Assembly: GCA_963555985.3 (NCBI GenBank)
Contig: OY820591.1
Location: 2,272,001 to 2,336,000 of the forward strand
Length of the DNA stretch: 64,000 nucleotides
Direction of reading: 5' to 3'
Source: Dehalococcoidia bacterium
GTDB taxonomy: Bacteria > Chloroflexota > Dehalococcoidia > Bin125
The position numbers were made by a program, and so were the translations under genes. This document shows, in pieces, positions 10,536-47,445 of the stretch (position 1 is the stretch's first letter; each line of letters begins with the position of its first letter). The notes under the pieces were generated by a model, which did not search any database, was not told the origin of the DNA, and was given only the letters and a program-made list of their open reading frames with translations.

Positions 10536-10613
10536 TCCAGAACTCGCTCTGGAAGCGGCCCGCGGCAAAGCCAAGAGCAAGATTCAAAAGGGGGCTAGAC
10601 GCCTGTGACCAAT

Positions 10614-11423
10614 ATGGCCAGAGCAGAGGCTCTCACTCGACTTGAGGAATCCATCGATCAGTGCCGCTCTCTCAAGGGGGGGAGCACCGACACCCAAGAT
10701 TTCAAAGTCTGGCACAGAAACACCTCCGTCGCCCTCAGATACATATTCGGCGAGCAGAGCGATCATCTGGAGGAGTTTCAGAACATCAGCTACACCCCTT
10801 GGGTATACGTCTCGGGAATGACTGACGCGGACTTCAGGCCGCCGTACGAAGCAGGGCTGAATCGAGCCGAGGCCATGTTGCTGTCGATGCATGAAGAGAT
10901 TGAAGAGTTCTGGAAGGAAGATCGCAAAACTGAGTCGAGAGATCTCGCTCCTGAGACTCAGCGTACGGGGTCCGGGGACAGGGTTTTTCTCGTGCATGGT
11001 CGCGACGATGGAGCCAAGGACTCGGTCGCGAGATATCTGGCGGAGTTGGGACTTGGCGTGGTTGTCCTGCATGAGCAGCCAAACAGGGGCCGTACGATCA
11101 TCGAGAAATTTGAAGACTACTCGGATGTCGGATCCGCGATTGTCCTGTGCACGGGAGACGATGTTGGTTCTCTGAGGGGAGCGGAAGAGGACATGGAGTC
11201 TCGAGCAAGGCAGAACGTGATATTCGAGTGGGGATACTTCGTTGGGAAGCTGGGGCGTGAGCGGGTGTTCGCGCTGGTTGCCGAAGGCATCACTCGCCCG
11301 TCGGACTATGACGGCGTGATCTACGTCCCGTTCGATGCGTCAGGTGCTTGGAGACTGTTGCTGGGCCAAGAAATGCGGGCCGCAGGCTTGCCGATCGACT
11401 TGAACCAGCTGGGACGGCGATAG
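10614..11423 (+). CDS. Stand-alone TIR-like (Cap12/Pycsar-type TIR) protein
   Basis: VFLVHGRD, GRTIIEKFE, RARQNVIFEWGYFVGKLGRERV and PSDYDGVIY motifs. Confidence 0.88.
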   Translation: MARAEALTRLEESIDQCRSLKGGSTDTQDFKVWHRNTSVALRYIFGEQSDHLEEFQNISYTPWVYVSGMTDADFRPPYEAGLNRAEAMLLSMHEEIEEFWKEDRKTESRDLAPETQRTGSGDRVFLVHGRDDGAKDSVARYLAELGLGVVVLHEQPNRGRTIIEKFEDYSDVGSAIVLCTGDDVGSLRGAEEDMESRARQNVIFEWGYFVGKLGRERVFALVAEGITRPSDYDGVIYVPFDASGAWRLLLGQEMRAAGLPIDLNQLGRR

Positions 11424-11548
11424 ACCCAGCTGGGTCTCCATGGCAACGGCGAAGATCGTCGGCTCAGCGCCGGAAATCAAAGAAGCAAGCAGGCTACTTG
11501 GCCGTTGCCAATTCGCTAGCCTTCTGCTAATCGAGCGGGAGGTACCTC

Positions 11549-13393: not shown

Positions 13394-13441
13394 GCGGCGC
13401 GAGCTAGCGATTCGAGCGGCGGCGGACAAGGGGGCGGCCAG

Positions 13442-14392
13442 ATGCGCGGCTACCTCGTCCGCCGCATACTCCTCGCCATCCTCACGCTCTTCGGCATCAG
13501 CGTGATCGTCGCAGGAGTCATGCGCACCCTCCCGGGCGATGTCGTCGATGTGCTCGCCGCCGAAGCCTTCTACGACGACACCGAGAAAGAGCGACTGCGC
13601 GAGGAACTCGGTCTTGACGCGCCCTTCTTCGAGTATTTCGGCAACTGGTTCGTAGACGCTGTCCAGGGCGACTTCGGCAAGGCGCTCCGCACCCAGCGCG
13701 ATGTGCGTGGCGATCTTGTCAACCGCATCGACGTGACGATCGAGCTCGCCATTCTCGGTCTCATCATCGCCACGATGATCTCCGTGCCCCTGGGCGTGAT
13801 CGCCGCGCTCCAGCGCAGCCGCTGGCCCGATTATGTGGCCCGCAGCATCGCCGTCTTCGCGCTCGCCATCCCCGGATTCTGGCTCGCCACTCTCGCCATC
13901 GTCTTCGGCGCCAAATGGTTCACTTGGTCGCCGCCCCTGGGCTATCAGGCGATCTGGGAAGCGCCGCTCACCAATCTCCAGCAAATGTGGCTGCCCGCCC
14001 TGCTCTTCGGACTGATCCTCGCCGGCGTCCAAACCCGCATCCTCCGCACCGCCCTGCTCGATGTCCTGCGCCAGGATTACATGCTCACCGCACGCGCAAA
14101 AGGCCTCTCGCGCACCCTGCTCCTGCGCCGACACGCGCTGCGCAACTCCCTGATCCCCTTCATCACCGTGATTGGAGTGCAGTTCCCCGTAGTACTCGGC
14201 GGCTCGGTCGTCTTCGAATTGATCTTCAGCCTGCCGGGCATCGGCACCTACCTGCTCGACGGTATCGCCAACCGCGACTACATCGTCGTGCAGGCCGTCA
14301 ACGTCTGGATCGCCGGCGCCGTGATCCTCACCAACCTCTTCGTGGACGTGTCGTATGGCTTCCTCGACCCACGCATCCGCGTCAGCAGCTGA
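13442..14392 (+). CDS. ABC permease (DppB/OppB-like)
   Basis: YMLTARAKGL...HALRNSLIP and RDYIVVQA motifs. Confidence 0.93.
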   Translation: MRGYLVRRILLAILTLFGISVIVAGVMRTLPGDVVDVLAAEAFYDDTEKERLREELGLDAPFFEYFGNWFVDAVQGDFGKALRTQRDVRGDLVNRIDVTIELAILGLIIATMISVPLGVIAALQRSRWPDYVARSIAVFALAIPGFWLATLAIVFGAKWFTWSPPLGYQAIWEAPLTNLQQMWLPALLFGLILAGVQTRILRTALLDVLRQDYMLTARAKGLSRTLLLRRHALRNSLIPFITVIGVQFPVVLGGSVVFELIFSLPGIGTYLLDGIANRDYIVVQAVNVWIAGAVILTNLFVDVSYGFLDPRIRVSS

Positions 14393-15260
14393 GCCGCCCG
14401 TGCTCGGCGCCGGGCGCGCCCTCCGCGCCGTCGGCCGCGTCGTCAGGCGCTACCCCTTCCCCTGTCTGATCACGCTTATCCTCTGCGCCATTGGCGCAGG
14501 CTCCGGCCTGGCCGACTTCATCGCCCCCTACGATCCCAACGCCGTCAACCCCATCGACCGTCTGCAAGGTCCCAACTCCACCTACTGGATGGGCACCGAC
14601 GCGCTTGGCCGCGACGTCTTCACCCGCATCCTCTACGGCGGACGCGCCTCGCTCGGCGTCAGCATCGCTTCGGTTGCGCTGGGAGTGGTGATCGCCACCG
14701 CGGTTGGACTCGTCAGCGGGGCCTTGGGCGGCTGGTTCGACTCCCTCATCCAACGAGTCGTCGACATGCTGATGGCCTTCCCCGGCCTGATCATCGTGAT
14801 CTCGCTTACGGCATTCTTCGGCACCAGCGTCACTCTCCTGATCGTGGTCATCGCCATTGCCCTGCTCGGAGGCGGCATTCGCATCGCTCGAGCCGCCGCC
14901 ATCCAAGTCGGCTCCCAGCCCTACATCGAGGCCGCCCGCACGATCGGCGCCACCACGCCCAGGATCATCGTGCGTCACATCCTGCCCAACGCCCTGCCCC
15001 CGATCATGGTGATCGCCACCGCCTACCTCGGCATCGCCATCCTGATCGAAGCCTCCGTCTCCTTCCTCGGCTACGGCATCCAACCCCCGTCCGCCTCCTG
15101 GGGCTTCATGCTCGGAGCCGAAGCCCGCATCCACATGATCGAGCAACCCTGGCTCTCGGTCTGGCCGGGTCTCGCCATCTTCCTCACCGTCTTCAGCTTC
15201 AACATCATCGGCGACGCCCTCCGCGACGCCTGGGATCCACGCCTGCGCGGGGCTGGCTGA
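14355..15260 (+). CDS. ABC permease (DppC/OppC-like)
   Basis: GTDALGRDVFTR, YIEAARTIGA and GDALRDAWDPR motifs. Confidence 0.93.
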   Translation: MASSTHASASAAEPPVLGAGRALRAVGRVVRRYPFPCLITLILCAIGAGSGLADFIAPYDPNAVNPIDRLQGPNSTYWMGTDALGRDVFTRILYGGRASLGVSIASVALGVVIATAVGLVSGALGGWFDSLIQRVVDMLMAFPGLIIVISLTAFFGTSVTLLIVVIAIALLGGGIRIARAAAIQVGSQPYIEAARTIGATTPRIIVRHILPNALPPIMVIATAYLGIAILIEASVSFLGYGIQPPSASWGFMLGAEARIHMIEQPWLSVWPGLAIFLTVFSFNIIGDALRDAWDPRLRGAG

Positions 15261-15336
15261 TACCGCTGACCTAGCTCGACTTGTACGATGAGAGACGCAC
15301 GCAGTTAGGGATTTCGGCGGGCGGCAAGGGCGTCCC

Positions 15337-20313: not shown

Positions 20314-21645
20314 GTGGTTGATCAGTCGAACGAGCGTCAGCGTGGAGTACGCCGACTCGTAGCGGGCGGCATCAGCAGGGCAGCCGACATGCCGGGGCTG
20401 ACTCGCTCAGCTCCCTCGCTTCGCAGGTGTGCGGTCTGGATCCTACTCGCCATCGCGTGCAGCCTCCTGGTCCAGACATGCAGCTCGCAGAACCTACATC
20501 CCTCATCACAGCCGCCGATTGAGGCTGCGATAACCGAATCGGTAACGCAATCTCCAGAGCCGAAGCCAGCCGAAACTGAGCGCGATCCCGTCACTCCCTC
20601 CCAGCCCGCAACAAGCGGGGATGATATTGGAGGCGGCAACCCGCCTGCCCTGAGCGAGCTGGACAAAGACGCGAAACGCCCTGTGGTCGATACGACCGGC
20701 GCTGACAGCGAGCACAGACGAGACGCACGGCGTGTCGCAGCGACCGCTGCATTGCGGTATCGGCCTCAGGACAACGACAGCAACCGCCCGCAGGGTGACC
20801 CGAACGTTGCCGCGATCGCTCTCGACACGCCCAAGCGAACGCCTTTGGCTGATGCGGCTCTGAGCGAGGAGGTTGAGACGGCGACAGTTTCAGACGTGCA
20901 CGACCAGCACGCAGGTGACGCACCGCTGGTATCCGTCTCCGACACCGTGTTTACGCATCCCTTCGACGCCTGGGATCCGCCTTGGACGGGCATCCCGGCA
21001 AACTCCGAAGCGAAGGTGATCGCCGCCGCCGTCCCGGCCGGGCCTCACTGGCCAACGAAGCCCGCAACCCATGCAGCTGACGGCAGCCCTCTGATCTATC
21101 TCACCTTCGACGACGGACCGCACGAGGTCTGGACACCGCGGGTGTTGGAGGCACTGGCGGACTACGGCGCGATTGCCACTTTCTTCGTTACCGGAGCGCA
21201 CACGACCGAGCATCCCGAGCTAGTCGCCCGTACCGCGTCGGCAGGACACGGAATTGAGAATCACACCTACAACCATCTGCGCCTGGACGAGCTGGATGCA
21301 GACACGTTCCGCGCAGAGGTACAGCGAACCGATCGCGCCATCCAGGCGGCGCTCGGCGCCGACGCCCGCCCGGTCACCTGCCTACGAGCGCCCTTCGGCG
21401 CGTTCAACGACGAGACCGGCATTCGCGCCAGAGAACTCGGCAAGTGGTTGATTGGCTGGGACTACAGCCCGCAGGACTGGCTTGAGCAGGATCCGGTCAA
21501 ACTCGCAGCGGACACGCTCGCACATGCGCGGCCCGGCTCGATCTTGCTCTTCCACGACACCAATCGGGGCACGGCGGAGGCGCTGCCCGCCATCCTCACT
21601 GAACTCTCCCAGCGTGGGTATCAGTTCGCACTACTCTGCGAGTAA
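20314..21645 (+). CDS. Polysaccharide deacetylase (NodB homology) with membrane anchor and low-complexity linker; start uncertain
   Basis: LTFDDGP, NHTYNH, RAPFG and LFHD motifs. Confidence 0.85.
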   Translation: MVDQSNERQRGVRRLVAGGISRAADMPGLTRSAPSLRRCAVWILLAIACSLLVQTCSSQNLHPSSQPPIEAAITESVTQSPEPKPAETERDPVTPSQPATSGDDIGGGNPPALSELDKDAKRPVVDTTGADSEHRRDARRVAATAALRYRPQDNDSNRPQGDPNVAAIALDTPKRTPLADAALSEEVETATVSDVHDQHAGDAPLVSVSDTVFTHPFDAWDPPWTGIPANSEAKVIAAAVPAGPHWPTKPATHAADGSPLIYLTFDDGPHEVWTPRVLEALADYGAIATFFVTGAHTTEHPELVARTASAGHGIENHTYNHLRLDELDADTFRAEVQRTDRAIQAALGADARPVTCLRAPFGAFNDETGIRARELGKWLIGWDYSPQDWLEQDPVKLAADTLAHARPGSILLFHDTNRGTAEALPAILTELSQRGYQFALLCE

Positions 21646-23461: not shown

Positions 23462-24406
23462 ATGCCCGCCCAACTCGCTAACGGAGACTTCACCTACACC
23501 GCCCTCGACCTCTGGGAGCAACTGCCCGACGGCGTCACCCTGGTCGAATCGCCCGGCGTCGCCGTCGCTCCCGACGACACCGTGTACGTCCTCACCCGCA
23601 ACGTCGAGCACCCGGTGATGGTCTTCGACGCCGACGGCAGCTGGCGCGGGAGTTGGGGCCAGGGCAACTTCACCGACCGCTCCCACGGCATCTGGATCGG
23701 ACCGGAGGGCGATGTCTGGGGCGCCGACGACGGTACCCACACGATCACCCGCTGGTCGCCCGACGGGGAACTCCTGCAAACCCTCGGCGATCCCTACAAC
23801 CCCGCTCCGGCTTGGGGCGGCAAGCCGTTCAACCGCCCCACCCACGCGGCGGTCTCGCCGGTCAGCGGCGACATCTTCGTCACCGACGGCTACGGCAACA
23901 GCTGCGTCCACCGCTTCGACGCCGACGGCAATCACAAGCAGACCTGGGGCACGCCCGGCATTGACGCGGGACAATTCATCCGTCCGCACAACATCGCCAT
24001 CGACGACGACGGCCTGCTCTACATCGCCGACCGCGAGTGCCACCGCGTCCAGATCTTCAGCGAGAGCGGCCAGTTCGTGACGATGTGGAACAACATCCAC
24101 CGCCCCGACGGCCTCACGCTCGCGCCCGACGGCAACATCTACATCGGCGAACTGAACGAGATGGGCGGCATGGCCGACGCCCCCGGCCTCGGCCACCGGG
24201 TCAGCATCTACGACCGCTCCGGCAACCGTCTCGCCCTGCTGGGAGATGCCGATGAGGGCGAGGAAGCCGGCAAGTTCATCGCCCCCCACGGCATCGCCGT
24301 AGACAGCAAGGGCGACGTCTACGTCGGCGAGGTCTGCAACACGATTCGGGGGAAGGCGTTAGGGATGGAGTTGCACAGTCTCAAGAAGCTGGTGCGGGAG
24401 GGTTAG
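23462..24406 (+). CDS. NHL-repeat beta-propeller (PAL-like) protein
   Basis: [26 protein letters not shown] and [10 protein letters not shown] repeats. Confidence 0.9.
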
Positions 24407-30398: not shown

Positions 30399-30432
30399 GC
30401 GCCTGGTGGATAGATTGAGTGCAAGGGAAGAC

Positions 30433-31308: not shown

Positions 31309-31320
31309 CAAGTTGTGAGG

Positions 31321-35898: not shown

Positions 35899-37125
35899 CT
35901 AGACAGCGCGGCGTTGGGGATCGACGAGCCAGCCGAGTTGAGCGCCGAAGCCGATCCAATCGGCGACGCGGCCTTGCTGATCGCTAAGCGCGTCGTTGGG
36001 CGAGCGAACTTCGACGACGAAAGCGGGGCAGAGGTTCAGAAACCTCTGCGCGGCGGAGCGCCCCCGGCGGCGGCAAGCTGCTCGGGCGTCATCCAGGAGA
36101 CGTTGGGACCCCAGAGCGGTTTGCGGCTTGGTGGGTTCACATTGCAACTGCAACAACTGCCGACCGAAGACTTCGGCCGGGGAGAGGTAGTCGAGGCACT
36201 GGCGGGGGGTGTTGTTGTACAACTGCAGCACTTCGATCAAACGCGCGAGGCTGAGTTGGGCGAGGTCGAGCCGGCGCGGCAGGACCCGGCGCAGGCGTCC
36301 GATCGCATTCTCGATCCCGCCCTTCTGCCAGGGCGCGTAGGGGTCGCAGAAGAAGGTCTCCACGCCCAGCCGGTGCAGTTCGTAGTGGCGGGCGAACTCG
36401 GTCCCGTTGTCGAACGCGACCGTGCGCCGCAGGGCGGGCGGCCAGGCGCGGAGCAGGCTGAGCAGCAGGCGCGCGACCGGAGCGGCCGCCTTGCCCGCCA
36501 CGGGCAAGCCCACGAGCAGCCGCGAGGAGCGCTCGTGCAGCATCAGCAGGAGCGGACCGCCGCGCCCGAAGAGCATCAGGTCGGCCTCCCAGTGACCGGC
36601 TTCGAGCCGCCCGGCGGCCGCCGCCGGGCGCTCGCTCAGGGGCCGCCGCAGTTGGATGCGCTCGACCGAACTGCCGCCTTTGCGCCCGCGCCAACCGCGT
36701 TTCGCCTTGCGCCGCGGCAGATACTGGCGCCAACCGCCGCCGCGGCCGGGCTTGGCCCGCGAGGCTTGGGCGTAGATGAAGCGATAGATGCTCTCGTGCG
36801 AGATCACCGGCGCGCCCGCCTCGCGCGCCAGCCGGCCTGCGACCTGTTGCGGCGAGAGCCCGCGGGCCAACTCGCGCAGCACCCGCGCGCGCAGCTGATC
36901 GTCGCGTTCCAGCCGCGAACCGCGCCAGCGCCGCGCCTGGGCCTGTTGCTGGGCGTAGTCGGGACGGTAGCCGTCGCGCGCCGTGTTGCGTTTCAGCTCT
37001 CGAGCAATCGTCGATGGCGAGCGATCCAGAGCTGCAGCGATCTGCCGGATCGAGCGCCCCTCGGCCTGTAAGCGGGCAACCGCGCATCGCTCCGCCAGGT
37101 CCAACTGCGTGTACTGCGCGCCCAT
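35899..37125 (-). CDS. IS30 transposase reading through its right end into Uma2 sequence
   Basis: HTH SIRQIAAALDRSPSTIARELKRN; GHWEAD, DNGTEF and PWQKGGIEN motifs. Confidence 0.93.
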   Translation of the reverse strand: MGAQYTQLDLAERCAVARLQAEGRSIRQIAAALDRSPSTIARELKRNTARDGYRPDYAQQQAQARRWRGSRLERDDQLRARVLRELARGLSPQQVAGRLAREAGAPVISHESIYRFIYAQASRAKPGRGGGWRQYLPRRKAKRGWRGRKGGSSVERIQLRRPLSERPAAAAGRLEAGHWEADLMLFGRGGPLLLMLHERSSRLLVGLPVAGKAAAPVARLLLSLLRAWPPALRRTVAFDNGTEFARHYELHRLGVETFFCDPYAPWQKGGIENAIGRLRRVLPRRLDLAQLSLARLIEVLQLYNNTPRQCLDYLSPAEVFGRQLLQLQCEPTKPQTALGSQRLLDDARAACRRRGRSAAQRFLNLCPAFVVEVRSPNDALSDQQGRVADWIGFGAQLGWLVDPQRRAV

Positions 37126-37170
37126 GGGCTCACCTCAATCATCTGTCGCACTTCGTCTGTGAGACTAGGC
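36130..37170 (-). mobile_element. IS30-family insertion sequence (1041 bp)
   Basis: Imperfect terminal IRs (TGTCGCACTT..TGTGA / TGTTGCAGTT..TGTGA); 2-bp TSD (TT at 36128-29 and 37171-72); removal restores the Uma2 sequence D-Q-S-R. Confidence 0.9.
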
Positions 37171-37534
37171 TTTGGTCGTCGCTGAGGTCGAAGCCGGCAC
37201 TGGACTCCTGGACCATGCCGCCGGCGCCGGCCTTGGCCCAGGCTCGGACTTCAGCACAGATTTCCACGCCAATGTACGAGCTTGCTCCGCCTGCGGGCAT
37301 GTTGATCTCCAGCGCTCCGAAGTGTCCGCGTTCCAAGCGCAGGTCCTGGTTGAGGCTGCACAGCTCTTCGAGACAATCGTTGGTCAGCGTCCAAGCTTCG
37401 GGCAGACGGATGCGGATCGGCCAGATCTTGACCGGCATCACCGAGATTTCCGGCTCTCGCGTCAGCCTGGTCGTCATGCGCGGCGCTCCCCTCACATGAC
37501 TATTCAGCCTAGCGACGTAGAGCTGGCGGGGGAG

Positions 37535-38824
37535 TCAGGAAGCCGAAGTGCCGATCGCGCCGGACGCGCGCAACTCCGCGATCCGCTCCGCCGAAAACCC
37601 AAATTCCGACAACACCGCATCCGTCTCCCCATCCAACACCGGCGACGAGCGCGCCGTACCCGTCGGCGTCGCCGACATCTCCACCAGCGCACCCACATGA
37701 CGCTCCGGCCCAGTCAGCGGATGCTCAATCTCCCGCATGATCCCCATCGCCTCTACCTGCGGATCCTCTCCGATCTCCTCCGGCCAGTTCACCGGCGACG
37801 CCGGCGCTCCGGCAGCGTCCAGGCGTTCCATCCACTCCCTCATCGTGCCGCTGCGCAGCTTGGCCGCGATCTGCTCCCGCACCCGCGCCACAATTCCGTC
37901 CGACTCCGGCGCGATCGCGTTGAAGTCGTCGTCATCCGTAGGATCGTCGCTAATCTCCAGGGCGCGCCGGATTTGCGCGCGGTTCTGCGGAGTCAGCGCA
38001 CCGAGAATGATCGCGCCGTCACGCACCGGGTAACCGCCGTAGTACAGGCGGAAGGCCTTGCCTTGGCGTGGCAGATCACGACGCGCAGCGTTCAGCTCGG
38101 CGTAGGATGCGCCCGCCTCACGCATCTGCGAGAGCGCCTCCCGCAGCGGATCAACCAAAATCGCATCGGAGACCGGTACCCGAGAAACCCAGCTGGACTG
38201 GAGCGTGAGACCGGCGGCGAGCAATGACGTCGAGAGAAACTGGCCCTCGCCCGTCCGTTCGCGGTGCCAGAGCGCCGCGCAGACGCCCATCGCCCCACCC
38301 AGCGCAGCCACGTAATCGGCGGGGGCAGTAGCTGTAATGTGCTCAGGCGCCCCGTCCGCGCCAACCTTCATATCGCCCGCCATCAGACCGGAATAGGCCT
38401 GCACCACAATGTCGGAGCCCGCGCGCTCGGCGCTGGGCCCGCGGCTGCCGAAGCCGGTGACGTGGAGGTAGATCAGATCCGGACGGATTGCACTGAGGGT
38501 CTCGTAGTCCATGCCGATGCGTTTGTCGACGCCGGGGCGGACATTGGTGACGAAGACATCGAACTGGGGGATCAACTCGTGCGCGACCTCTCTGCCGGCC
38601 GCTGCCGCCAGGTTGATCACGATCCCGCGCTTGCCCCGGCTCAGAGCATGAAATGCCTTACTCTCGCCCGGCGCGAACTGGCCAATCCGCCGCGCCCCCT
38701 CGCCGCCGGGCGGCTCCAGCTTGATTACCTCTGCGCCCAGATCAGCGAGCGCAGTCCCGCAATACGGCCCGGCGATAATCTGAGCCAGTTCGAGCACCTT
38801 GATGCCGTCGAGCGGACCGGGCAT
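37535..38824 (-). CDS. Class III CoA-transferase (third paralog)
   Basis: MPGPLDGIKVLELAQIIAGP and AGSDIVVQAYSG motifs. Confidence 0.93.
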   Translation of the reverse strand: MPGPLDGIKVLELAQIIAGPYCGTALADLGAEVIKLEPPGGEGARRIGQFAPGESKAFHALSRGKRGIVINLAAAAGREVAHELIPQFDVFVTNVRPGVDKRIGMDYETLSAIRPDLIYLHVTGFGSRGPSAERAGSDIVVQAYSGLMAGDMKVGADGAPEHITATAPADYVAALGGAMGVCAALWHRERTGEGQFLSTSLLAAGLTLQSSWVSRVPVSDAILVDPLREALSQMREAGASYAELNAARRDLPRQGKAFRLYYGGYPVRDGAIILGALTPQNRAQIRRALEISDDPTDDDDFNAIAPESDGIVARVREQIAAKLRSGTMREWMERLDAAGAPASPVNWPEEIGEDPQVEAMGIMREIEHPLTGPERHVGALVEMSATPTGTARSSPVLDGETDAVLSEFGFSAERIAELRASGAIGTSAS

Positions 38825-38904
38825 TGCCAACCTCCCGAGGTTGTTGGGGCAGGGTATGCCAGACGCCCGATTTAGACTGCAAGGCAAAGCTGAAAGAGGG
38901 AACC

Positions 38905-39768
38905 ATGAGCGACTACGAACACATCCTCTACGACCACGACGGCCCCGTCGTCACGATCACCTGGAACAACCCGGAGACCCTGAACGCAATCACGCCCGTG
39001 CTCGAGCGCGAGTTTCATGCCGCGCTCGATCAGGCCAACGCTGATCCGGACGCCCGCGCAATCATCTTCACCGGCGCAGGACGTGCCTTCTCCTCCGGCT
39101 ACAACATCGACGGCGGGATCGACAGTGAGGTAGCCGGCGCGCGCCTGCCCGTCTCCGAGCACCTGGAGCGCTGGTTCAACTTTTCGACCAAGAACCCAGA
39201 CATGATGATGCACCTGATGACGCTGGAGACGCCGATCATCGCGGCGGTCAACGGCTGGTGCATCGGCGGCGGCTTCTGGTACGCGCTGGCGGCGGATATC
39301 ACGATTGCCTCCGATCGCGCGGTCTTCGCCCAGCCGGAGGTGCGGATGATCTCGAATTCGTCCGTGCTGTTCGGGATTCTCGCAGGCTGGAAGGTCGCGC
39401 ACCGCTACGCGCTGACCGGCGACCACTTCGACGCCCAGGAAGCCCTCCGGATCGGCGTGATCAACGAGATCGCGCCAGCCGAAGATTTGATGGAGCGTGC
39501 AGACGCGCTGGCGCGGCGGCTAGCGCTAGTACCGGCTCACTCGGTTCGCTACAACAAGCTGATTACGGCTAGAGGCCTGGAGGCGATGGGTCTGCGCAAC
39601 GCGCTTAACGTCGGCTCGATGCTCTCCACCCTCGTCGAAGCCTCCGCCGACGGTCCCCAGGTGGAGCACCTGGACGAAGCCCGTCGCCAAGGCGGCTTCG
39701 GCGCGTTCCTGCGAGCGCGGGACGAACCATTCCGCCCCGAGCCGTTTGGCCCGCGCAGCGAGCGTTAG
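38905..39768 (+). CDS. Enoyl-CoA hydratase/isomerase family
   Basis: TGAGRAFSSG, PIIAAVNGWCIGGG and FAQPE motifs. Confidence 0.93.
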   Translation: MSDYEHILYDHDGPVVTITWNNPETLNAITPVLEREFHAALDQANADPDARAIIFTGAGRAFSSGYNIDGGIDSEVAGARLPVSEHLERWFNFSTKNPDMMMHLMTLETPIIAAVNGWCIGGGFWYALAADITIASDRAVFAQPEVRMISNSSVLFGILAGWKVAHRYALTGDHFDAQEALRIGVINEIAPAEDLMERADALARRLALVPAHSVRYNKLITARGLEAMGLRNALNVGSMLSTLVEASADGPQVEHLDEARRQGGFGAFLRARDEPFRPEPFGPRSER

Positions 39769-39769: not shown

Positions 39770-42553
39770 GTGCCCCTCTCTCGCAACGAGCTGAGGCCGC
39801 GCGCGGCCGAATTCGCTCGGGATTGGGCCGACGCCACCTACGAGAAGGCCGAGACCCAGAGCTTCTACAACGAGTTCTTCGCCATCTTCGAGGTCAAGCG
39901 GCGCAGCGTCGCCCGCTACGAAGAGCACATAAAGCGGCTCGACAATTCAGGCGGCTTCATCGATCTGTTTTGGCCGAAAGTGCTGTTGGTCGAGCAGAAG
40001 AGCGCTGGCCGGAGTTTGGCGGCGGCGCGCGAACAGGCGCTTGGCTACTTCGACGCCCTGCCAGAGTCTGAGCGCCCGCGCTATCTGCTGCTCTGCGACT
40101 TTCAAAACTGGGAACTGCTCGACCTCGATCTCGAGGAAGAAGTCCGCTTTGCGCTGCACCAGTTGCCGGACTACATCGACCAATTCAATTTCGTGCAGGG
40201 TTTGCAAAAGCACCCCTTCCGCGATCAGGATCCGGTCAATATCGACGCATCCGAGCTAATCGGCGCAGTCTACGACGGGCTGAATGCGTCCGGCCATCGC
40301 GGTCATGCACTCCAGCGCTTTCTCGTGCGGATCGTCTTCTGCCTCTTCGCCGACAACACCGGAATCTTCGAACGCGACAGCTTCCTGCAACTGCTGGAGG
40401 AGCGCACCTCCCCGGACGGCGCCGACACCGGCATGTGGCTCGACCACCTGTTCACTGTGCTCGACACGCCTGTGGCCGAGCGGTCAACGCTGCTCGACGA
40501 AGATCTCGCAGCATTTCCCTACGTGAACGGCGACCTATTCAGAGAACGATTGGATGCGCCGGACTTCGACTCCAGTTTGAGAACGTCGCTGATCAACGCG
40601 GCGCGCTTTGATTGGTCGAGAATTTCGCCAGCGATCTTCGGCGCGTTGTTCCAGTCGGTAATGAATCCCGACGAGCGCCGCGCGATGGGGGCGCACTACA
40701 CCACGGAGCAGAACATCCTCAAGGTGATCGAGCCACTCTTTCTCGATGACCTGCGGGCCGAATTTGAGCACCTCAAGCAGAACCGCGGAACGCGGCGACG
40801 GGCGGAACTGGAGCGCTTCCAACGCCGGCTCGGTGAGCTGCGCCTGTTCGACCCGGCCTGCGGCTGCGGCAACTTCCTGATTATCGCCTACCGAGAGCTG
40901 CGCCGGCTTGAAATCGAGGTGTTGCAGGAGCTGTATCCGTTCACTGAGACGGCAGCGCTGGACGTGTCTCAGCTCTCCAACATCAATGTGCACCAGTGCT
41001 ATGGAATCGAGATTCTCGACTTTTCCGCCCGCATCGCTGAGACCGCGCTCTGGATGATGGACCACATCATGAACGTGCGCCTCTCGGAGCAGCTCGGGCA
41101 GTATTTCGCGCGTATTCCGCTGGGCGAGTCGCCGCACATTCGCTGCGCCGACGCGCTCGAGATCGACTGGAACGACGTGCTACCGGCAGAGCAGTGCAGC
41201 TATGTCTTCGGCAATCCACCGTTCGTTGGCTCCAAGCTACAAACGCGGAGGCAACGGGATCAGATCCGGCGAATCGCCGATCTCGGCGGCAGTGGTGGCT
41301 CGCTCGACTACGTCGCCGCCTGGTTCCTGCTCGCCGCTGAGTATGTGCAACGCGGCGAAGCTCAGATCGGCTTCGTCGCAACCAACTCGATCACGCAGGG
41401 TCAGCAGGTCGGTCAGCTCTGGCCACTGCTCTTCAACCGCCACGGGCTCGAGATCGTCTATGCGCACCGTGCCTTCGCCTGGGGTTCAGACGCCAAGGGA
41501 ATAGCGCGCGTGCATGTCGTCGTGATCGGTTTGACTCGGTCAACGGCAGCACGTGCGAAGCGGGCACTCTACTCATATGACGATCTCAAGGGCGAACCGT
41601 CTCAGAGCGTGCATCGAGCCATTTCGCCGTATCTGATCGACGCCGACGCGCTCCAAAATCCACACCTGACAGTCAAATCAGCGTCATCGCCGCTCAACGG
41701 CCTCACACCGCTTCGCTACGGTACACAGCCGATAGACGACGGGAACTTGATTCTGAACGCGACTGAACGTTCGAAGATACTGAGTCAGTGCCCCAACCTC
41801 GAACCCCACGTGCGGCCGTTCGTCGGCGCACAGGAATTCTTGCAAGGAGGAGAGCGGTGGCTACTGTGCTTGGAAACTGCTCCACCTGCGAGCATCCGCT
41901 CGTGTTCCGACGTTGCGAAACGAATCTCGGCGGTTCGCGAGTTTCGCTCGAAAAGCAAGCGGGCAGTCACTCGTGAACTGGCAGCCAAGCCAAGGAGCTT
42001 TGCATTTTCGACGATTCCTGCCAACCCGTTTCTGACGATTCCTGAAGTCAGTTCGGAGCGCCGAGAGTACGTTCCGATCGGTTGGTTGGAGCCGCCAACC
42101 ATTCCCAGCAACCTGGTTCGGGTCCTCGAAGCTGCAACGCTCTGGCAATTTGCGTTGTTGACCTCGGCGATGCACAACGCCTGGATGCGCACTGTGGCAG
42201 GTCGCCTCGAAAGTCGTTACCGCTACTCAATCGGGATTGTCTACAACACTTTCCCTCTGCCCGACGCCGACGACGAGCAACTGCAAACGCTCGCCCCTCA
42301 CGCCCAGGTCGTGCTGGACGCCCGCGCACAGTTCCCGGACGCCTCCCTCGCCGATCTCTACGACCCCGACCTCATGCCGCCGCCGCTGCGCAAAGCGCAC
42401 CAACAACTCGACCGCGCCGTAGACCGCCTCTACCGCCGCGCCCCCTTCCGCTCCGAGCGCGAGCGAGTCGAACACCTGCTGGGGCGTTACGAGCGGATGG
42501 TTGCGCCACTCGAAGCGACGCGGCCCAAGCGTCGCCAACGTCGCTCTCGCTAA
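39770..42553 (+). CDS. MmeI-like type IIL restriction-modification enzyme
   Basis: N-terminal IDLFW..LLVEQKS nuclease motif; GAHYT, DPACGCGNF, GNPPF and SSERREYVPIG motifs. Confidence 0.92.
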   Translation: MPLSRNELRPRAAEFARDWADATYEKAETQSFYNEFFAIFEVKRRSVARYEEHIKRLDNSGGFIDLFWPKVLLVEQKSAGRSLAAAREQALGYFDALPESERPRYLLLCDFQNWELLDLDLEEEVRFALHQLPDYIDQFNFVQGLQKHPFRDQDPVNIDASELIGAVYDGLNASGHRGHALQRFLVRIVFCLFADNTGIFERDSFLQLLEERTSPDGADTGMWLDHLFTVLDTPVAERSTLLDEDLAAFPYVNGDLFRERLDAPDFDSSLRTSLINAARFDWSRISPAIFGALFQSVMNPDERRAMGAHYTTEQNILKVIEPLFLDDLRAEFEHLKQNRGTRRRAELERFQRRLGELRLFDPACGCGNFLIIAYRELRRLEIEVLQELYPFTETAALDVSQLSNINVHQCYGIEILDFSARIAETALWMMDHIMNVRLSEQLGQYFARIPLGESPHIRCADALEIDWNDVLPAEQCSYVFGNPPFVGSKLQTRRQRDQIRRIADLGGSGGSLDYVAAWFLLAAEYVQRGEAQIGFVATNSITQGQQVGQLWPLLFNRHGLEIVYAHRAFAWGSDAKGIARVHVVVIGLTRSTAARAKRALYSYDDLKGEPSQSVHRAISPYLIDADALQNPHLTVKSASSPLNGLTPLRYGTQPIDDGNLILNATERSKILSQCPNLEPHVRPFVGAQEFLQGGERWLLCLETAPPASIRSCSDVAKRISAVREFRSKSKRAVTRELAAKPRSFAFSTIPANPFLTIPEVSSERREYVPIGWLEPPTIPSNLVRVLEAATLWQFALLTSAMHNAWMRTVAGRLESRYRYSIGIVYNTFPLPDADDEQLQTLAPHAQVVLDARAQFPDASLADLYDPDLMPPPLRKAHQQLDRAVDRLYRRAPFRSERERVEHLLGRYERMVAPLEATRPKRRQRRSR

Positions 42554-42579: not shown

Positions 42580-42678
42580 GCAGACGGTCCGCAGGTAGAG
42601 CACCTGGACGAGGCACGACGTCAGGGCGGCTTCAGAGCGTTCCGGCCGGAGCTGTTTGGTCCGCGAAGCGCGCGCTAG
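42580..42678 (+). pseudogene. Remnant copy of the enoyl-CoA hydratase 3' end (39646-39768)
   Basis: ADGPQVEHLDEARRQGGFRAF/RPELFGPRSAR*; 29/32 aa identical, 24-nt deletion. Confidence 0.9.
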
Positions 42679-42899
42679 CCGGCGGCGATGACAATCGCCA
42701 CAGCCAAGCCTGCGATCGCGAGCATCGCCAGGATCAGCTGAACCTGCTGACGCGCGAACATCGCTTGCAGTCGCAGTTCGAATTCTTCGCGCGTCGGGTA
42801 CTCAGACATCGCGTCGGTGAACTCGTCCGCGTCTTCCGAGCTCGCGCCAATCTTGCGCAGCACCCTCCGAATCCGCAGCATTGGCGTCATCACGGTCAT
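42675..42899 (-). CDS. Small membrane-anchored protein, DUF1640/CCDC90-like
   Basis: LRKIGASSEDADEF head, PTREEF neck and C-terminal TM helix; paralog at 45085. Confidence 0.65.
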   Translation of the reverse strand: MTVMTPMLRIRRVLRKIGASSEDADEFTDAMSEYPTREEFELRLQAMFARQQVQLILAMLAIAGLAVAIVIAAG

Positions 42900-44003: not shown

Positions 44004-44034
44004 CGGCGGCGACCCACTGACCTCGGAGACGCCC

Positions 44035-45075
44035 ATGACACGGATCGGCATCATCGGCGCCGGCGCCATCGGCGGTACTGTTGGCGGAATGCTCACCCGC
44101 GCCGGCTACGACGTGACCCTGATCGATCACTGGGTCGAGCACGTCGAAGCGATGAAGGCCAACGGCCTGCGCCTATCGGGGCCGCTGATCGGCGATATCC
44201 GCGTGCCGGTCAAGGCGCTCCATCTCTACGAGGTGCAGGCCATCTCCGAGCCGTTCGACATCGGCATCGTCGCGGTCAAGTCCTACGACACCGAGTGGGC
44301 CACCCACCTGCTCAATCCCTTGGTGCGCGAGAACGGCGCGGTCGTCGACTTCCAAAACGGCATCAACGACGAGCGAGTCGCCGCCATCGCCGGGCGCGAC
44401 CGCACCCTCGGCTGCGTGATCACGATCGGTTGCGGGATGTACGACCCCGGCCACTGCCTGCGCACCGACACCCGCACGCTGGGCTTCAAAGTCGGTGAGC
44501 TGGACGGCTCAGACTCCGACCGCGCCCGCGAGATCGCCGCCATCATCAATCACGTCGCCGGCGCCGAGTCCACCACCAACCTCTGGGGCGAACGCTGGGG
44601 CAAGCTCGCCGTCAACTGCATGGCCAACCCCATCGCCGGACTCTCCGGCTACGGCTCCGGCGAGGTCCGAGCCCGCAACGAGACCCGCTGGCTCTGCACC
44701 CGCATCGCCGCCGAGGTGGTCCAGGTAGGCCGTGCCTACGGTCACCAAATCGACGCCGTTTGGGGCATCCCTGCGCAGAAGTTCATAGACGTAGCCAACG
44801 GCGCCGATCCAGCAGAGCTGGACGCCGAGCTCATCGCCGGAGCGCAAGCGCTCGGCGCAGGCCGCCCCAGCTTCCTCCAAGACGTCATCCGCCGCCGCCG
44901 AGTAGAAATCGACGCCCTCAACGGCTGGGTAGTCGAACAAGGCCAAGCCGTAGAAGTACCCACCCCAATCAACGCCGCAGTCACAGAAGTGGTGCGGTCG
45001 TTCGCGGTCGGGGAGTTGCAATCGGATCCAGCCAACATCGGCCGAATCATGAAACGGCTTGAGGGAAGTCGGTAG
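44035..45075 (+). CDS. Ketopantoate reductase family protein
   Basis: GAGAIG, VKSYDT, QNG, WGKLAVN, SFLQD and EIDALNG motifs. Confidence 0.92.
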   Translation: MTRIGIIGAGAIGGTVGGMLTRAGYDVTLIDHWVEHVEAMKANGLRLSGPLIGDIRVPVKALHLYEVQAISEPFDIGIVAVKSYDTEWATHLLNPLVRENGAVVDFQNGINDERVAAIAGRDRTLGCVITIGCGMYDPGHCLRTDTRTLGFKVGELDGSDSDRAREIAAIINHVAGAESTTNLWGERWGKLAVNCMANPIAGLSGYGSGEVRARNETRWLCTRIAAEVVQVGRAYGHQIDAVWGIPAQKFIDVANGADPAELDAELIAGAQALGAGRPSFLQDVIRRRRVEIDALNGWVVEQGQAVEVPTPINAAVTEVVRSFAVGELQSDPANIGRIMKRLEGSR

Positions 45076-45084
45076 GGTTGGCCC

Positions 45085-45321
45085 ATGGCGCTCAACCCAC
45101 TTCGCATCCGTCGCAGCGTCATCAACCTCGGAGCGACCGAAGATCAGGCTGACGAGGCAACCGAAGCGCTGATCGAAGGATTCGCCGGTCTCGTGACCAC
45201 CGAAGACCTGCACGCCGCGCTAGGAGCGCTGGAACATCGCATTGTCAATCGGCTGCTGCTCGCGATGATTGGTCTGAGCGCTGTCATCATTGGATCGGTG
45301 GCGCTGATTGTCCATTTGTAA
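45085..45321 (+). CDS. Small membrane-anchored protein, DUF1640/CCDC90-like
   Basis: LGATEDQADE, LVTTEDL and C-terminal TM helix. Confidence 0.7.
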   Translation: MALNPLRIRRSVINLGATEDQADEATEALIEGFAGLVTTEDLHAALGALEHRIVNRLLLAMIGLSAVIIGSVALIVHL

Positions 45322-45338
45322 CCGGGGAGAGCGGTGCA

Positions 45339-45588
45339 ACACCGGCGGGTGCAGCGGTGCCTAGAGTAGTGCGGTTAGTTCCGGGGAGGATCGGCTGAGT
45401 CGCGGATCCGATCGAACGAATTCGATTGGCCTGTCCTGCCGCCTTGAATCCACCTCGCACGAGTGTCGCATCATCGGCATTGGCGCGACCGAAGAGCAGG
45501 CGGACGACTTCGTCGATGCAATCAGCGGCCCGGCAACCGAGGTAAGCTCGAACCAAGCCCACACACGCTGGCGAAATCAAATGCAATG
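45339..45588 (+). pseudogene. Decayed copy of the ketopantoate reductase 3' end plus a second small-gene copy
   Basis: TPAGAAVPRVVR versus TPINAAVTEVVR; then ALNP and, after a frameshift, IGATEEQADDFVDAI. Confidence 0.7.
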
Positions 45589-47445
45589 AACATGTCAGAT
45601 TCGAATAGGCCCATCACTGCTCAGGAACTCATGTCATGCGGCTGGGAGGATGTGTTACGCGGTCTCAATGAACAAGGCTATATGGCCATGGAGGGCGAAT
45701 TCAGGAAGGCGGCGGCAGTCGCATTCGAGCAGGATCGGACCACCGATGGAAGTGCACTTCGCCTGCTGGCCGAGCTGTGCTCAATGATGCTCTCCGTTTC
45801 TGACTCCAAAGTCCCGTTCAGACCCGAGTGGGTATTGGAGGACCGACGATCCAGAATTCCAGACGACTTGCTTCCTGCAGAAACTGCCGCTCTTTCTGAT
45901 TTCGTCCCGACAGTGGAGAATCCATGGCTCAAGGGGCGTCTTGCTCACGTTGTGTGGATCGCGAGCAAGCCACGGGATGTTCCGTTCGCGTTGATGACGA
46001 TTGATTGCTATCGGTCGTTGCCGCTAACCGTTTCCGCGTGGCTTCACGGCAGTCACGCCGCATGGGCTCAAGCGATCATGCTCAGCAAGGGTCTGCGAGA
46101 CGCAGTTGGCAACCGCCTAGAGGAAGTCGAGCACGCTCTCGTCGAGACAGCCTTGTCCTCAGAGTTCGGGCAGGAGGTACCGATTCTGCCGATCGGCCGC
46201 CTTCTCCGGAAACACGGACTCGGCAAATCAAGAGCCGGCGACATCGCGTCTCTGTTCGCCAAATGCGCGCAGGGCATTGCTGCGGACGGCGAACACACCA
46301 ACGCTGCTGCCTACTTCGAGCAGGCGAGCGAGTGGTACGGCGTCGCCGACGACCGGAATTCGCAAATCGAGATGATCGTCGCCGAGGCGGAATCGTACGT
46401 CGCGGAGGGTGAACAGCGTCTCCAGTCAGAGGCGCCCTCAGCCTCAGTCGCCGCCTCATGGTTCAATGACGCGGTCCAGGCCTACCGCAAGGTTCCGAGT
46501 GCCGAGCGATCACGATTTGGCATCGATGAGCGGATTCATGACCTGCGCATGTTGTTGTCTGAAACGAGGCGTGAGTCCATGAGCGAGTTCAAGACTTTTG
46601 AGACTAGTACCGATGTCTCAGAAGCAGTAACGCGAATACAAGACGAATTGCGGGGCCACGATCTCCCTCAATCGCTCAAACGCTTTGCCGCTCTGGTCGC
46701 GCCGCCGTCCCACCAACAGATGATTGACGAGGCAAAGGCGATTGCCGAGCAGACCATCTTTACGAAGCTGTTCGGCGTCAGTCACATGAGTTCCGACGGC
46801 CGCGTGGTTGGGCACCGGGACCCTTCCCGTCCCGACAATGCGGAGCAGGAGGACAAGGGTCTTGAAGACGATACGTTTCGCCAGTACCAGCACACATTCG
46901 GCTTCATCGGCGCCTGTGTAGTCGAACCAGCGCGACTTGTGATTTCAGAAGAACATCAGCTAACGGAGCGCTACTTTGCAGAGCTCGCTGCGGTGTCTCC
47001 ACTCGTGCCTCTCGGTCGTGAGATCATATTCGCAAAGGGCCTCCACGCTGGGTTCGTCGGTGACTACGTTACTGCTGCCCACTTGCTGATACCTCAGTTC
47101 GAGCATTTCATTCGCTGCGCTATTGCGAACACCGGAGGTCCAACGACGAATCTCTACGACTCTGGCGTCGAGCACCACAAGACCCTCGACGCTCTTCTGG
47201 CGCTCCCTGAAGCAGAACCCACATTTGGGAAAGATCTGTTCGAGATGTTGAAAGCCATCCTCTCCGATCCGAACGGCGAAGGCTTGCGAAACCAGATCGC
47301 GCACGGCCTGCTTGACGATCACGATTTCCCGTGGGACCGCGCAGCATTTCTGTGGGGACTAGCACTGTCGCTCACAGTCAGATCACTCGTCGTAGATGGT
47401 GGAACGATTCCGGATCTTCGAGGGTCGGACGATCCTGCAATGTGA
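45586..47445 (+). CDS. DUF4209 (HEPN-like) domain protein
   Basis: HLLIPQFEHFIR and GLRNQIAHG (R-x4-H) near the C-terminus; atypical codon usage. Confidence 0.8.
   Translation: MNMSDSNRPITAQELMSCGWEDVLRGLNEQGYMAMEGEFRKAAAVAFEQDRTTDGSALRLLAELCSMMLSVSDSKVPFRPEWVLEDRRSRIPDDLLPAETAALSDFVPTVENPWLKGRLAHVVWIASKPRDVPFALMTIDCYRSLPLTVSAWLHGSHAAWAQAIMLSKGLRDAVGNRLEEVEHALVETALSSEFGQEVPILPIGRLLRKHGLGKSRAGDIASLFAKCAQGIAADGEHTNAAAYFEQASEWYGVADDRNSQIEMIVAEAESYVAEGEQRLQSEAPSASVAASWFNDAVQAYRKVPSAERSRFGIDERIHDLRMLLSETRRESMSEFKTFETSTDVSEAVTRIQDELRGHDLPQSLKRFAALVAPPSHQQMIDEAKAIAEQTIFTKLFGVSHMSSDGRVVGHRDPSRPDNAEQEDKGLEDDTFRQYQHTFGFIGACVVEPARLVISEEHQLTERYFAELAAVSPLVPLGREIIFAKGLHAGFVGDYVTAAHLLIPQFEHFIRCAIANTGGPTTNLYDSGVEHHKTLDALLALPEAEPTFGKDLFEMLKAILSDPNGEGLRNQIAHGLLDDHDFPWDRAAFLWGLALSLTVRSLVVDGGTIPDLRGSDDPAM

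Follow-up and report, generated by a model that had tools for sequence, protein, structure and literature searches.

The 64,000-nucleotide stretch analysed in this work (the window: positions 2,272,001 to 2,336,000, forward strand, of contig OY820591.1 from the Dehalococcoidia bacterium assembly GCA_963555985.3) carries a run of metabolic genes with six accessory units, each starting 1-78 bp past the stop codon of a co-oriented host gene, as the first-pass annotation of this DNA had described for the span 10536-47445. Comparison with 33 syntenic relatives, performed for four of these six positions (slots 3-6 in the numbering below), showed that in all four the same core genes enclose variable content, empty sites included, with no mobility genes in the slots of the relatives, which are features of a core defence hotspot free of mobile genetic elements; the prediction of variable cargo in fixed slots was thereby confirmed, and in none of the four was the cargo fixed. 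That these positions are slots with a content in turnover seems to us very probable. The whole account given below, which joins the conserved block, the slots, their turnover and recombination by the host, is rather probable, and for the recombination route taken separately we consider the chances even.

The window has ~64% G+C, and its native genes show a G+C content at third codon positions (GC3) of 0.78-0.91. Searches with Pfam, PADLOC and NCBIfam identified in the metabolic run a gamma-glutamyltranspeptidase, PhyH, a dpp-type transporter, three family-III CoA-transferases, an enoyl-CoA hydratase (ECH), hot-dog dehydratases, a ketopantoate reductase (PanE) and several luciferase-like monooxygenases (LLM). 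All six accessory units have low GC3 (0.62-0.77, against 0.78-0.91 in the adjoining host genes), for which reason we consider them acquired. The slots were numbered as 1 (PhyH), 2 (dppC), 3 (NHL/RibD_C), 4 (CoA-transferase b/c), 5 (ECH/next gene) and 6 (PanE/LLM). PADLOC labels of the PDC type are taken by us to denote candidate systems, and the three cargos so labelled in the window (PDC-S35, PDC-M38A/B and PDC-S39) are regarded as candidate defence systems. The host genes, cargos and remnants of the six slots are as follows (RM, restriction-modification; TM, transmembrane):

9618..10535, plus strand: PhyH-family dioxygenase, slot 1 host (PF05721, E=4e-37; GC3 0.91)
10605..11423, plus strand: TIR-domain protein, slot 1 cargo, candidate single-gene system PDC-S35 (CAP12-PCTIR_TIR, E=1.4e-34; PDC-S35, E=3e-84; GC3 0.67)
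14355..15260, plus strand: dppC-type ABC permease, slot 2 host (BPD_transp_1, E=5.5e-29)
15337-16458, plus strand: AAA_21/ABC-type ATPase, slot 2 cargo, 76 bp past dppC (PDC-M38A; AbiLi, E=6e-43)
16466-17098, plus strand: DUF3226 protein, predicted TOPRIM/OLD-like, slot 2 cargo (PDC-M38B)
23462..24406, plus strand: NHL-repeat protein, slot 3 host (PF01436; 90-95% identical in relatives)
24441..25109, plus strand: DarT, single-stranded DNA ADP-ribosyltransferase toxin, 34 bp past NHL (PF14487, E=2.5e-41, profile positions 1-152 of 201)
25106..26152, plus strand: DarG antitoxin (macro domain), intact (NF048014, 433 bits against a cutoff of 250; PADLOC DarG, E=1e-127)
35899..37495, minus strand: Uma2-family gene split by an IS30-family insertion, slot 4 cargo (Uma2 PF05685 on both pieces, HTH_38, rve)
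37535..38887, minus strand: family III CoA-transferase (c), slot 4 host (PF02515, E=1.9e-92)
38824..39768, plus strand: ECH (Pfam), slot 5 host, with its live 3' end (copy A) at 39646-39768
39770..42553, plus strand: MmeI-family type IIG RM enzyme, slot 5 cargo (five MmeI Pfam domains; REase_MTase_IIG, 1126 bits)
42580..42678, plus strand: ECH remnant (copy B), last ~33 codons (blastn E=6e-13; tblastn E=2.5e-12)
42675..42899, minus strand: 74-aa small membrane-anchored protein, paralogue of the 45085-45321 gene (E=3e-6) and resident neighbour of ECH in relatives
44035..45075, plus strand: PanE/ApbA, slot 6 host (PF02558, PF08546; TIGR00745)
45085..45321, plus strand: 78-aa small TM protein, 9 bp past PanE (atlas score 0.92)
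45336..45562, plus strand: degenerate remnant of the PanE 3' end and the 5' half of a small TM gene, with a stop and a frameshift inside (collinear translated similarity)
45586..47445, plus strand: DUF7380+DUF4209 protein, slot 6 cargo, candidate system PDC-S39 (E=7e-172 from residue 44 of a long reading frame; GC3 0.63)

For the comparison, species-representative genomes were scanned with the ECH protein, which gave 80 loci; 33 of them (L001-L032, L065) were kept, these being Dehalococcoidia/Chloroflexota metagenome-assembled genomes with ECH proteins 82-89% identical and a gene order shared over ~20 kb. A slot was considered occupied if its gap exceeded 500 bp. The lengths of three neighbouring junctions and of the four slots were the following:

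OsmC to next gene (n=28): 3 bp in all, none over 500 bp; 0 bp in the window
MaoC to PanE (n=29): 4-42 bp, none over 500 bp; 31 bp in the window
LLM to hydrolase (n=28): 17-223 bp, none over 500 bp; 74 bp in the window
Slot 3, NHL to RibD_C (n=21): 9-1725 bp, 1 over 500 bp; 1742 bp in the window
Slot 4, CoA-transferase b to c (n=29): 49-2471 bp, 8 over 500 bp; 1891 bp in the window
Slot 5, ECH to MaoC (n=28): 124-2695 bp, 7 over 500 bp; 3269 bp in the window
Slot 6, PanE to LLM (n=29): 8-4465 bp, 19 over 500 bp and 5 under 100 bp; 2388 bp in the window

Twenty relatives had all four slots visible: no slot was occupied in seven of them, one in eight and two in five, and the window has four of four. 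Slot 6 proved to be the most diverse, with at least 12 cargo types; their GC3 was 0.53-0.76 (29 open reading frames, ORFs) against a median of 0.82 for the anchor genes (349 genes), and, as to orientation, 6 genomes had the cargo co-directional with PanE and 13 with LLM. Its content in the relatives was as follows:

Type II RM: L001, L006, L013, L017
Fused RM: L012, L029
MmeI type IIG: L018
DEAD helicase with MZB (MrfA-type zinc domain): L003, L009, L019
Trypsin-like protein: L011, L021
HATPase_c_3: L002
DUF3800: L025
HARE-HTH sets: L007, L027, L028
Large proteins without family: L004, L008

In the core tree (seven concatenated proteins, 2716 columns, 28 taxa), the content of slot 6 differed between sister genomes (L016, empty, against L019 with the helicase; L002 against L029; L004 against L008; L006 against L011), and identical cargo types reappeared on distant branches. 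Cargos of the same type were 42-82% identical in amino acid sequence against 82-86% for the core; for the L004/L008 pair the core identity was 96.5% and that of the cargo 62%. Hence, the content of the slots turns over faster than the species split, and the cargo alleles predate the species, so the slots apparently sample a shared pool. Differential loss from one ancestral island was considered as well and rejected, since it needs at least 12 cassettes in one slot together with many parallel losses in sister genomes.

The slots are not dedicated to defence, contrary to what had been proposed in the annotation. Slot 5 of the relatives holds an acyl-CoA dehydrogenase, a DUF899 protein and an LRR protein, which is why we regard the slots as not reserved for defence genes, and the window itself has three inserts of another nature (a polysaccharide deacetylase, an RCC1-repeat protein and a PGA_cap protein; see below). 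Slot 5 was short (390 bp or less) and cassette-free in 21 of the 28 relatives. PADLOC matches were obtained for 1 of the 21 ORFs in slots 4 and 5 of the relatives, versus 17 of 32 in slot 6 (E<=1e-5). As to the window, TIR, M38A/B, DarTG, MmeI and PDC-S39 matched PADLOC, in agreement with the defence units predicted, while the Uma2 unit had no match in the PADLOC defence library; the reading of the cargos as defence is limited by the candidate status of three of them and by the broken state of two units (DarT and Uma2). Whether a clustered island is absent, as had been stated, depends on the definition: in the Methods of PMC10924106, a defence island is delimited by at least five defence genes of at least three families lying no more than 10 genes apart, and TIR, M38A, M38B, DarT and DarG, separated by 3 and 7 genes, form an island by this spacing rule if the candidate families of PADLOC are counted.

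We propose that the conserved syntenic metabolic block of Dehalococcoidia contains a few intergenic points which would serve as insertion hotspots, mostly convergent sites or ends of transcription units. Each slot compared is empty in many related species, often with the convergent stops overlapping, and elsewhere holds one cassette of 1-4.5 kb, with a cargo of low GC3 that would mostly be an anti-phage or candidate anti-phage system. The cargo presumably sits after gene 3' ends mainly because insertions are tolerated there, as no promoter or operon would be broken. The most likely way of entry would be the host's own recombination acting on DNA taken up from relatives. Commonly this would proceed via double crossovers in the conserved flanks, leaving no scar; in occasional one-sided events, homology in the end of the flanking gene would be combined with an illegitimate join on the opposite side, and the displaced gene end would stay as a diverged remnant. 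At ECH, the incoming DNA would have come from a close relative and carried a version of the gene end that differed at synonymous sites; one crossover would have fallen inside ECH, and the opposite end would have been joined illegitimately.

The evidence for one-sided events comes from the gene-end remnants, the clearest of which flanks the MmeI-family enzyme in slot 5. Copy B is identical to the live ECH end, copy A, at 82 of 99 positions (83%) and has an in-frame 24-nt deletion; its frame is open, its stop is aligned, and its terminal TAG shares bases with the stop codon of the convergent small TM gene, as at the empty sites of the relatives. The MmeI unit (2.8 kb) is placed between these direct repeats of 99-123 bp, and each relative has a single copy. 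In slot 6, the PanE remnant is weak by itself: with softer scoring its nucleotide local alignment was matched by 27 of 2000 shuffles, and the fragment of the TM gene gave E=0.008-0.013; a strict nucleotide alignment was not significant (425 of 1000 shuffles), the similarity being seen with the softer scoring and in translation. The two host-gene 3' copies claimed earlier for this DNA are, consequently, of unequal standing, with strong support for that of ECH. A search of the window for further remnants (the last 60-80 codons and the last 183 nt of every gene, local alignments with shuffles) retrieved just that of ECH; the other end matches were paralogous CoA-transferase and LLM ends belonging to real genes, and the other four sites of the window yielded no remnant at E<1. 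As to the relatives, L002, L011 and L029 have a PanE 3' end after the small TM gene, and L006 has a CoA-transferase b 5' end next to a cargo gene of 746 aa. Remnants occur at a minority of occupied slots.

The differences between the remnants and the live gene ends are concentrated at third codon positions, with 14 of 17 for ECH, 22 of 34 for L002, 10 of 14 for L006 and 63 of 96 for the five cases pooled; the pooled excess is significant against equal shares (P=1e-10) as well as against neutral decay weighted by G+C content (P=8e-5). Neutral decay of a fresh duplicate is rejected by the latter value, obtained even with GC-weighted mutation. Such a bias agrees with a join that is homologous at one end and illegitimate at the other, an origin which it favours and does not prove, and codon positions weakly reject a duplication made at insertion. 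Additionally, just half a small gene lies between the two repeat copies in slot 6 of the window, which points to re-acquisition anchored in PanE rather than to an inserted element.

A number of observations weigh against the proposed recombination route. No recent transfer of flank plus cargo was found among these species, the flank ends of genomes with the same cargo being no more alike than whole genes. The divergence of the slot 6 flanks is raised in the gain/loss pair L016/L019 (88% versus 96-100%), and about equally so in the pair L023/L026, in which both slots are empty (84% versus ~92%), and is therefore uninformative as a sign of a recombination tract. The three amino-acid changes of the ECH copies and the deletion are all on the remnant, and the six closest ECH proteins of a large protein set (85-97% identical) have the tail type of the live copy, in a comparison made at the protein level, where synonymous sites are unreadable; with derived changes on the remnant only, the ECH remnant has evidently decayed. 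If a duplication had occurred and selection had then maintained the live copy while the remnant decayed, a third-position share of 0.57 would be expected; the observed shares deviate from it with P=0.027 for ECH and P=0.053 for the pooled cases. No donor and no empty site of the same species came to light, so both the crossover and the illegitimate join are inferences, and uptake of DNA by this lineage (through competence, transduction or otherwise) is putative. Finally, slots 1 and 2 are marked as acquired by composition alone, the comparison with relatives being that of slots 3-6.

Part of these facts would be explained by insertion with long target duplication, in which entry independent of any element duplicated ~100-230 bp of the target, the upstream copy then staying under selection and the downstream one decaying. 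We consider this rather unlikely, although it deserves serious weighing. The direct repeats around the MmeI unit, single-copy at the empty site of the relatives, and the absence of a mobility gene are in line with it, as are the derived residues shared by both ECH copies and missing in 27 relatives, the position of all amino-acid changes and of the deletion on the remnant, and the pooled codon-position test, which does not reject the model at the 5% level. RM insertions of this kind, type IIG included, have been described, some with repeats over gene 3' ends (Furuta, Abe & Kobayashi 2010, PMC2853133, in the cases presented there). By the characters of such insertions, the MmeI unit combines restriction and modification functions, is under 20 kb and is flanked by repeats longer than 30 bp that are single-copy in the relatives, as in the published cases, where the RM unit was likewise compared with an empty site and accompanied by no other mobility genes. 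The near-identity of the repeats, for instance 44/46 and 417/423 in the cases of PMC2853133, is lacking here: the ECH repeats are just 83% identical with the in-frame 24-nt indel and the third-position bias, and the excess of 14/17 for ECH has P=0.027 under this model. Moreover, in the slots analysed here remnants also flank cargo other than RM (the small TM gene and the 746-aa unknown protein of L006), unlike the RM insertions documented in that article; the "insert" between the slot 6 repeats would be half a small gene; and the many different cargos of one slot are not accounted for by the model itself.

Another possibility is that the units are decayed or trans-mobilised integrative elements, whose recombinases would act on gene 3' ends and which would carry a replacement gene end, the integrase having been lost later or residing elsewhere in the genome. 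A layout with attL and attR and a replacement gene end is classic for elements integrating into gene ends, and the order of gene 5' part, new 3' end, cargo and displaced 3' end resembles it. Hotspots of E. coli often hold islands with an integrase only, according to PMC10121019. The searches made here render this explanation unlikely. As had been claimed for this DNA, neither an integrase nor an att-tRNA was present: no tyrosine or serine recombinase was found among the scanned ORFs of the window, which contains no tRNA or tmRNA and thus not the combination of recombinase, att repeat and RNA target that distinguishes islands targeting tRNAs or gene ends, and no match to any Rfam family. Among the 59 distinct slot ORFs of the 33 relatives (48 scanned with Pfam and 11 named RM or helicase by PADLOC), none was an integrase or a transposase; the single DDE transposase within the span 10536-47445, of the IS30 family, lies inside Uma2. 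Shared boundary motifs, terminal inverted repeats and short target duplications were absent from 13 junction segments (156 comparisons, best z=3.4), and the lack of a common boundary motif is evidence against a single site-specific system for all of the slots. The scarcity of remnants among the occupied slots and the packing of single-system cassettes 1-78 bp from their neighbours also speak against integrative elements.

A dedicated, integrase-independent exchange of cassettes, in which the final ~100-200 nt of core genes would serve as portable homology pads, possibly together with the small, fast-evolving genes for CCDC90-like membrane proteins at slots 5 and 6, appears distinctly doubtful to us. 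If true, it would constitute an integron-like defence library dispersed over the chromosome, with host operons transcribing at least the tightly abutted cassettes. Integron cassettes are small, often promoterless and co-oriented with an upstream promoter, and their content varies between strains. The slots differ from integrons in having no IntI, no attC-like shared boundary element in the 156 comparisons and no array at a single attI, and in that the cargo of the relatives occurs in both orientations. Concerning expression, co-transcription with the host gene is plausible, judging by the spacing, for the tightest junctions, those of MmeI (1 nt) and of the small TM gene (9 nt). Readthrough cannot be a rule, because antisense cargo occupies slot 4 in five relatives and the cargo of slot 6 lies on either strand. 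Promoter and terminator scans gave counts at the level of shuffled sequences, with no match at any host-cargo junction, and were uninformative on readthrough.

The layout of the window alone is weak evidence, because three slots are convergent and the junctions carry no signals; it is the comparison with relatives that carries the argument. A co-oriented upstream neighbour within 80 bp was found for 21 of 50 non-cargo genes and for all six units, with a naive P of ~0.005 (gene list without the gamma-glutamyltranspeptidase gene); slots 3, 5 and 6 lie between convergent genes, where whatever is inserted, on either strand, follows a co-oriented gene, and the orientation part alone has a probability of ~0.125. 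That nothing special has occurred, i.e., that scattered acquired genes in a gene-dense genome produced the co-oriented 3'-end pattern through compaction and chance, would agree with the 44 co-oriented pairs among 60 adjacent gene pairs of the window, with the 66% of co-oriented gaps that are 80 bp or shorter, with the automatic co-orientation at the three convergent slots and with the lack of promoter or terminator signals setting the junctions apart from the background, but it is scarcely credible and, for slots 3-6, largely refuted by the junction distances, given that the variation in the 33 relatives is concentrated at the same few intergenic points with the neighbouring junctions fixed to a few bases, that slot 6 alone has at least 12 cargo types and that the window fills four of four testable slots versus 0-2 in 20 relatives.

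Among known systems, the slots most resemble the core defence hotspots cDHS1 and cDHS2 of P. aeruginosa (Johnson et al. 2023, PMC10250203), which likewise have variable defence content between universally conserved core genes, no obvious class of mobile element, a G+C content unlike that of the core and rapid diversification; recombination was proposed there as well. These hotspots are large regions with multiple systems (1-224 kb, median 26 kb), with the ssrA tmRNA gene bordering cDHS2 (in the wording "similar to cDHS1"), whereas here several single-cassette slots of 1-4.5 kb lie within 40 kb with no RNA gene nearby, many of them at zero-length convergent intergenic sites and some with non-defence cargo. 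The defence hotspots of E. coli (Hochhauser et al. 2023, PMC10121019) also hold diverse defence systems at fixed positions, and in hotspot #37 a mobile element was undetectable in 68% of cases; they differ in that many still hold integrase or recombinase genes, none of which was found here, and in phylum and scale. The displacement of effector-immunity genes of the type VI secretion system in V. cholerae, for which homology-facilitated illegitimate recombination was proposed (Kirchberger et al. 2017, PMC5361080), is similar in its conserved upstream gene anchor, its illegitimate non-homologous end and the retention of the old downstream piece as an orphan; plain homologous replacement, which is scarless, was thought there to be commoner. 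The orphan in that case is a whole immunity gene, maybe a useful one, and here it is a non-functional gene end known from sequence alone. Taken together, the slots are a further example of the known pattern of defence hotspots, and no new kind of system or molecular machine.

With regard to the individual slots, the likely start of the MmeI-family enzyme in slot 5 is the GTG at 39770, 1 nt past the ECH stop, and its single polypeptide contains the N-terminal, helicase-spacer, methyltransferase, target-recognition and C-terminal domains (E from 1e-24 to 6e-84); the earlier assignment of an MmeI-like enzyme after ECH was thus supported. Homologues were found in slot 6 of L018 (70%) and beside slot 4 of L028 (66%). 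The 287-aa proteins of the relatives suggest that the true start of ECH is near 38905. Next to ECH, tblastn detected the 74-aa gene in the majority of the 33 relatives (44-67% identity).

In slot 6, the stop of PDC-S39 is 18 bp from that of the convergent LLM gene (47464-48660, minus strand). The resemblance of the 78-aa TM protein to CCDC90/DUF1640 is a lead only; tblastn matches to its gene were obtained at the same position in 13 relatives, two of them partial. Proteins of 74-78 aa with a C-terminal TM helix are placed exactly at slots 5 and 6 (42675-42899, 45085-45321 and ~45443-45562). This small family evolves fast, with 44-68% identity beside flanks of 85-90%; its genes are in three tandem copies in L002 (10943-11616) and L029 (10907-11595), and in four genomes a small TM gene is the unit between PanE and its displaced 3' end. 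Large proteins of 441-792 aa without a Pfam or PADLOC family were also observed in slots, at positions holding known defence systems in other genomes:

L004, 14432-15991
L008, 13617-15995
L007, 14447-16582
L006, 6278-8518
L001, 7356-8681

The DarTG pair of slot 3 contains both domains, but its two genes are not both intact. DarT has an in-frame TAG at 24942-24944 (codon 168), after which the same frame resumes; the relative L004 has a Leu codon there. Because of this TAG, the toxin is probably inactive, and the antitoxin DarG has been kept. The terminal TGA of DarT overlaps the ATG of DarG (4-bp overlap), and the stop of DarG overlaps that of the convergent RibD_C gene (26149-26886, minus strand). 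Besides the window, darTG is present in slot 3 of L004, and in L002 and L027 a DarG gene adjoins RibD_C at the point where the locus is cut off; compared with the window, DarT of L004 is 54% and DarG 65% identical beside an NHL protein 95% identical. The gap of slot 3 is 9-17 bp in 14 loci, and in those empty sites that were inspected at the sequence level the two stops overlap. The region upstream of RibD_C in L003 was rejected as slot cargo, being a synteny break (LLM, hydrolase, rhomboid). Overlapping convergent stops, in which the CTAG palindrome leaves no intergenic DNA, were noted at empty slots (26149-26152, 42675-42678 and L010 ~4021-4033); cassettes are inserted precisely at such points, and the last few codons of RibD_C vary across genomes. 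Slot 3 of some relatives contains non-coding inserts of 110-260 bp with long G+C-rich inverted repeats that resemble miniature elements:

L008, ~1821-2073
L011, ~2158-2421
L005, ~2146-2264

The Uma2 unit of slot 4 starts 39 bp past the CoA-transferase stop, with its 5' part at 37139-37495 (minus strand), and the ORF 35899-37125 is an IS30 transposase (NF033563, E=5e-64) fused in frame to the 3' part of Uma2. The transposase has a native-like GC3 of 0.84, unlike the other cargo, and a scan for inverted repeats at the ends of the IS30 element gave no clear terminal repeats; IS30 within Uma2 is a secondary insertion. In the relatives, slot 4 is occupied chiefly by DUF6978+DUF1828 pairs and unknown proteins; in L002, L007, L017 and L029 the pair runs antisense to the host genes, as does the DUF1828 gene of L027. 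Several intergenic gaps share a short element (L002 4484-4564 and 6119-6163; L011 5888-5962), noticed because its translation resembles the beginning of the hydrolase ORF; one of these gaps is the 189-bp gap between CoA-transferases a and b of L002.

In slot 1, the TIR gene starts at the GTG at 10605 or the ATG at 10614, 69 bp from the PhyH stop. The ATPase and DUF3226 genes of slot 2 (GC3 0.62-0.67) form, as suggested by their profile matches, a candidate two-gene system, PDC-M38, of the AbiL/PARIS-like kind. A TOPRIM label had been given to DUF3226. Its sequence search against solved structures yielded no match, and a fold search was used instead: for the predicted model (pLDDT 90), the best PDB folds were those of retron Eco2 and of C-terminal regions of OLD nucleases, with Foldseek probabilities of 0.80-0.99 and E values of 0.003-0.045, and a TM-score of just 0.43-0.49. 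An invariant E-G and acidic residues are found across 35 DUF3226 sequences, presumably representing the TOPRIM signature. Hence a TOPRIM/OLD-like nature has moderate support at the level of the predicted fold. The SBP5-dppB-dppC genes (11549-15260) end at dppC with no ATPase genes after it, the ATPase/TOPRIM cassette being next; the 369-bp gap following this cassette contained no ATPase remnant (its ORF 17182-17448 has no Pfam match).

The non-defence inserts of low GC3 mentioned above are the following:

20314..21645, plus strand: polysaccharide deacetylase (PF01522; GC3 0.72), between SnoaL and a convergent carboxyltransferase
30406..33015: RCC1-repeat protein (plus strand) and PGA_cap protein (minus strand) (Pfam; GC3 0.68-0.69)

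The deacetylase is missing in L009, the single relative locus showing both flanks (gap ~60 bp). The gap between the aminotransferase and CoA-transferase a, which holds the RCC1 and PGA_cap genes, is 3789 bp long in the window versus 560-2009 bp in 21 relatives, four of which have fragments of a DUF418 gene in it, either its ends only or with an internal deletion; this is gene decay within another variable gap:

L003, 6651-7201
L004, 4995-5174
L008, 4889-4978
L011, 5233-5322

Outside the span 10536-47445, a Phd/YefM-type antitoxin gene (7176-7478, GC3 0.75) followed by an unassigned 171-aa ORF, in the area 7176-8079, may represent another small accessory unit. The gamma-glutamyltranspeptidase gene (7887-~9560, minus strand; PF01019, E=3e-141), divergent from PhyH, was initially masked by a long spurious ORF. 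A scan of the window for tandem repeats produced nothing bearing on the slots; one repeat with a 20-nt period (2.8 copies, 91% matches) lies at 56044-56100 in an unannotated gap between two LLM genes.

The slots bear on the open question of how defence genes move where no mobile element is visible. The role of mechanisms independent of mobile genetic elements, such as homologous recombination, "remains unclear" for uncultured communities (PMC10924106), and the P. aeruginosa hotspots are termed "enigmatic" (PMC10250203). Several large family-less proteins of slot 6 (L004, L007, L008), occurring beside known systems, are leads for discovery. The locus is a compact natural example in uncultured Chloroflexota, with several single-cassette slots and empty sites in related species for slots 3-6, and its surviving displaced gene ends bear on the chemistry of insertion.

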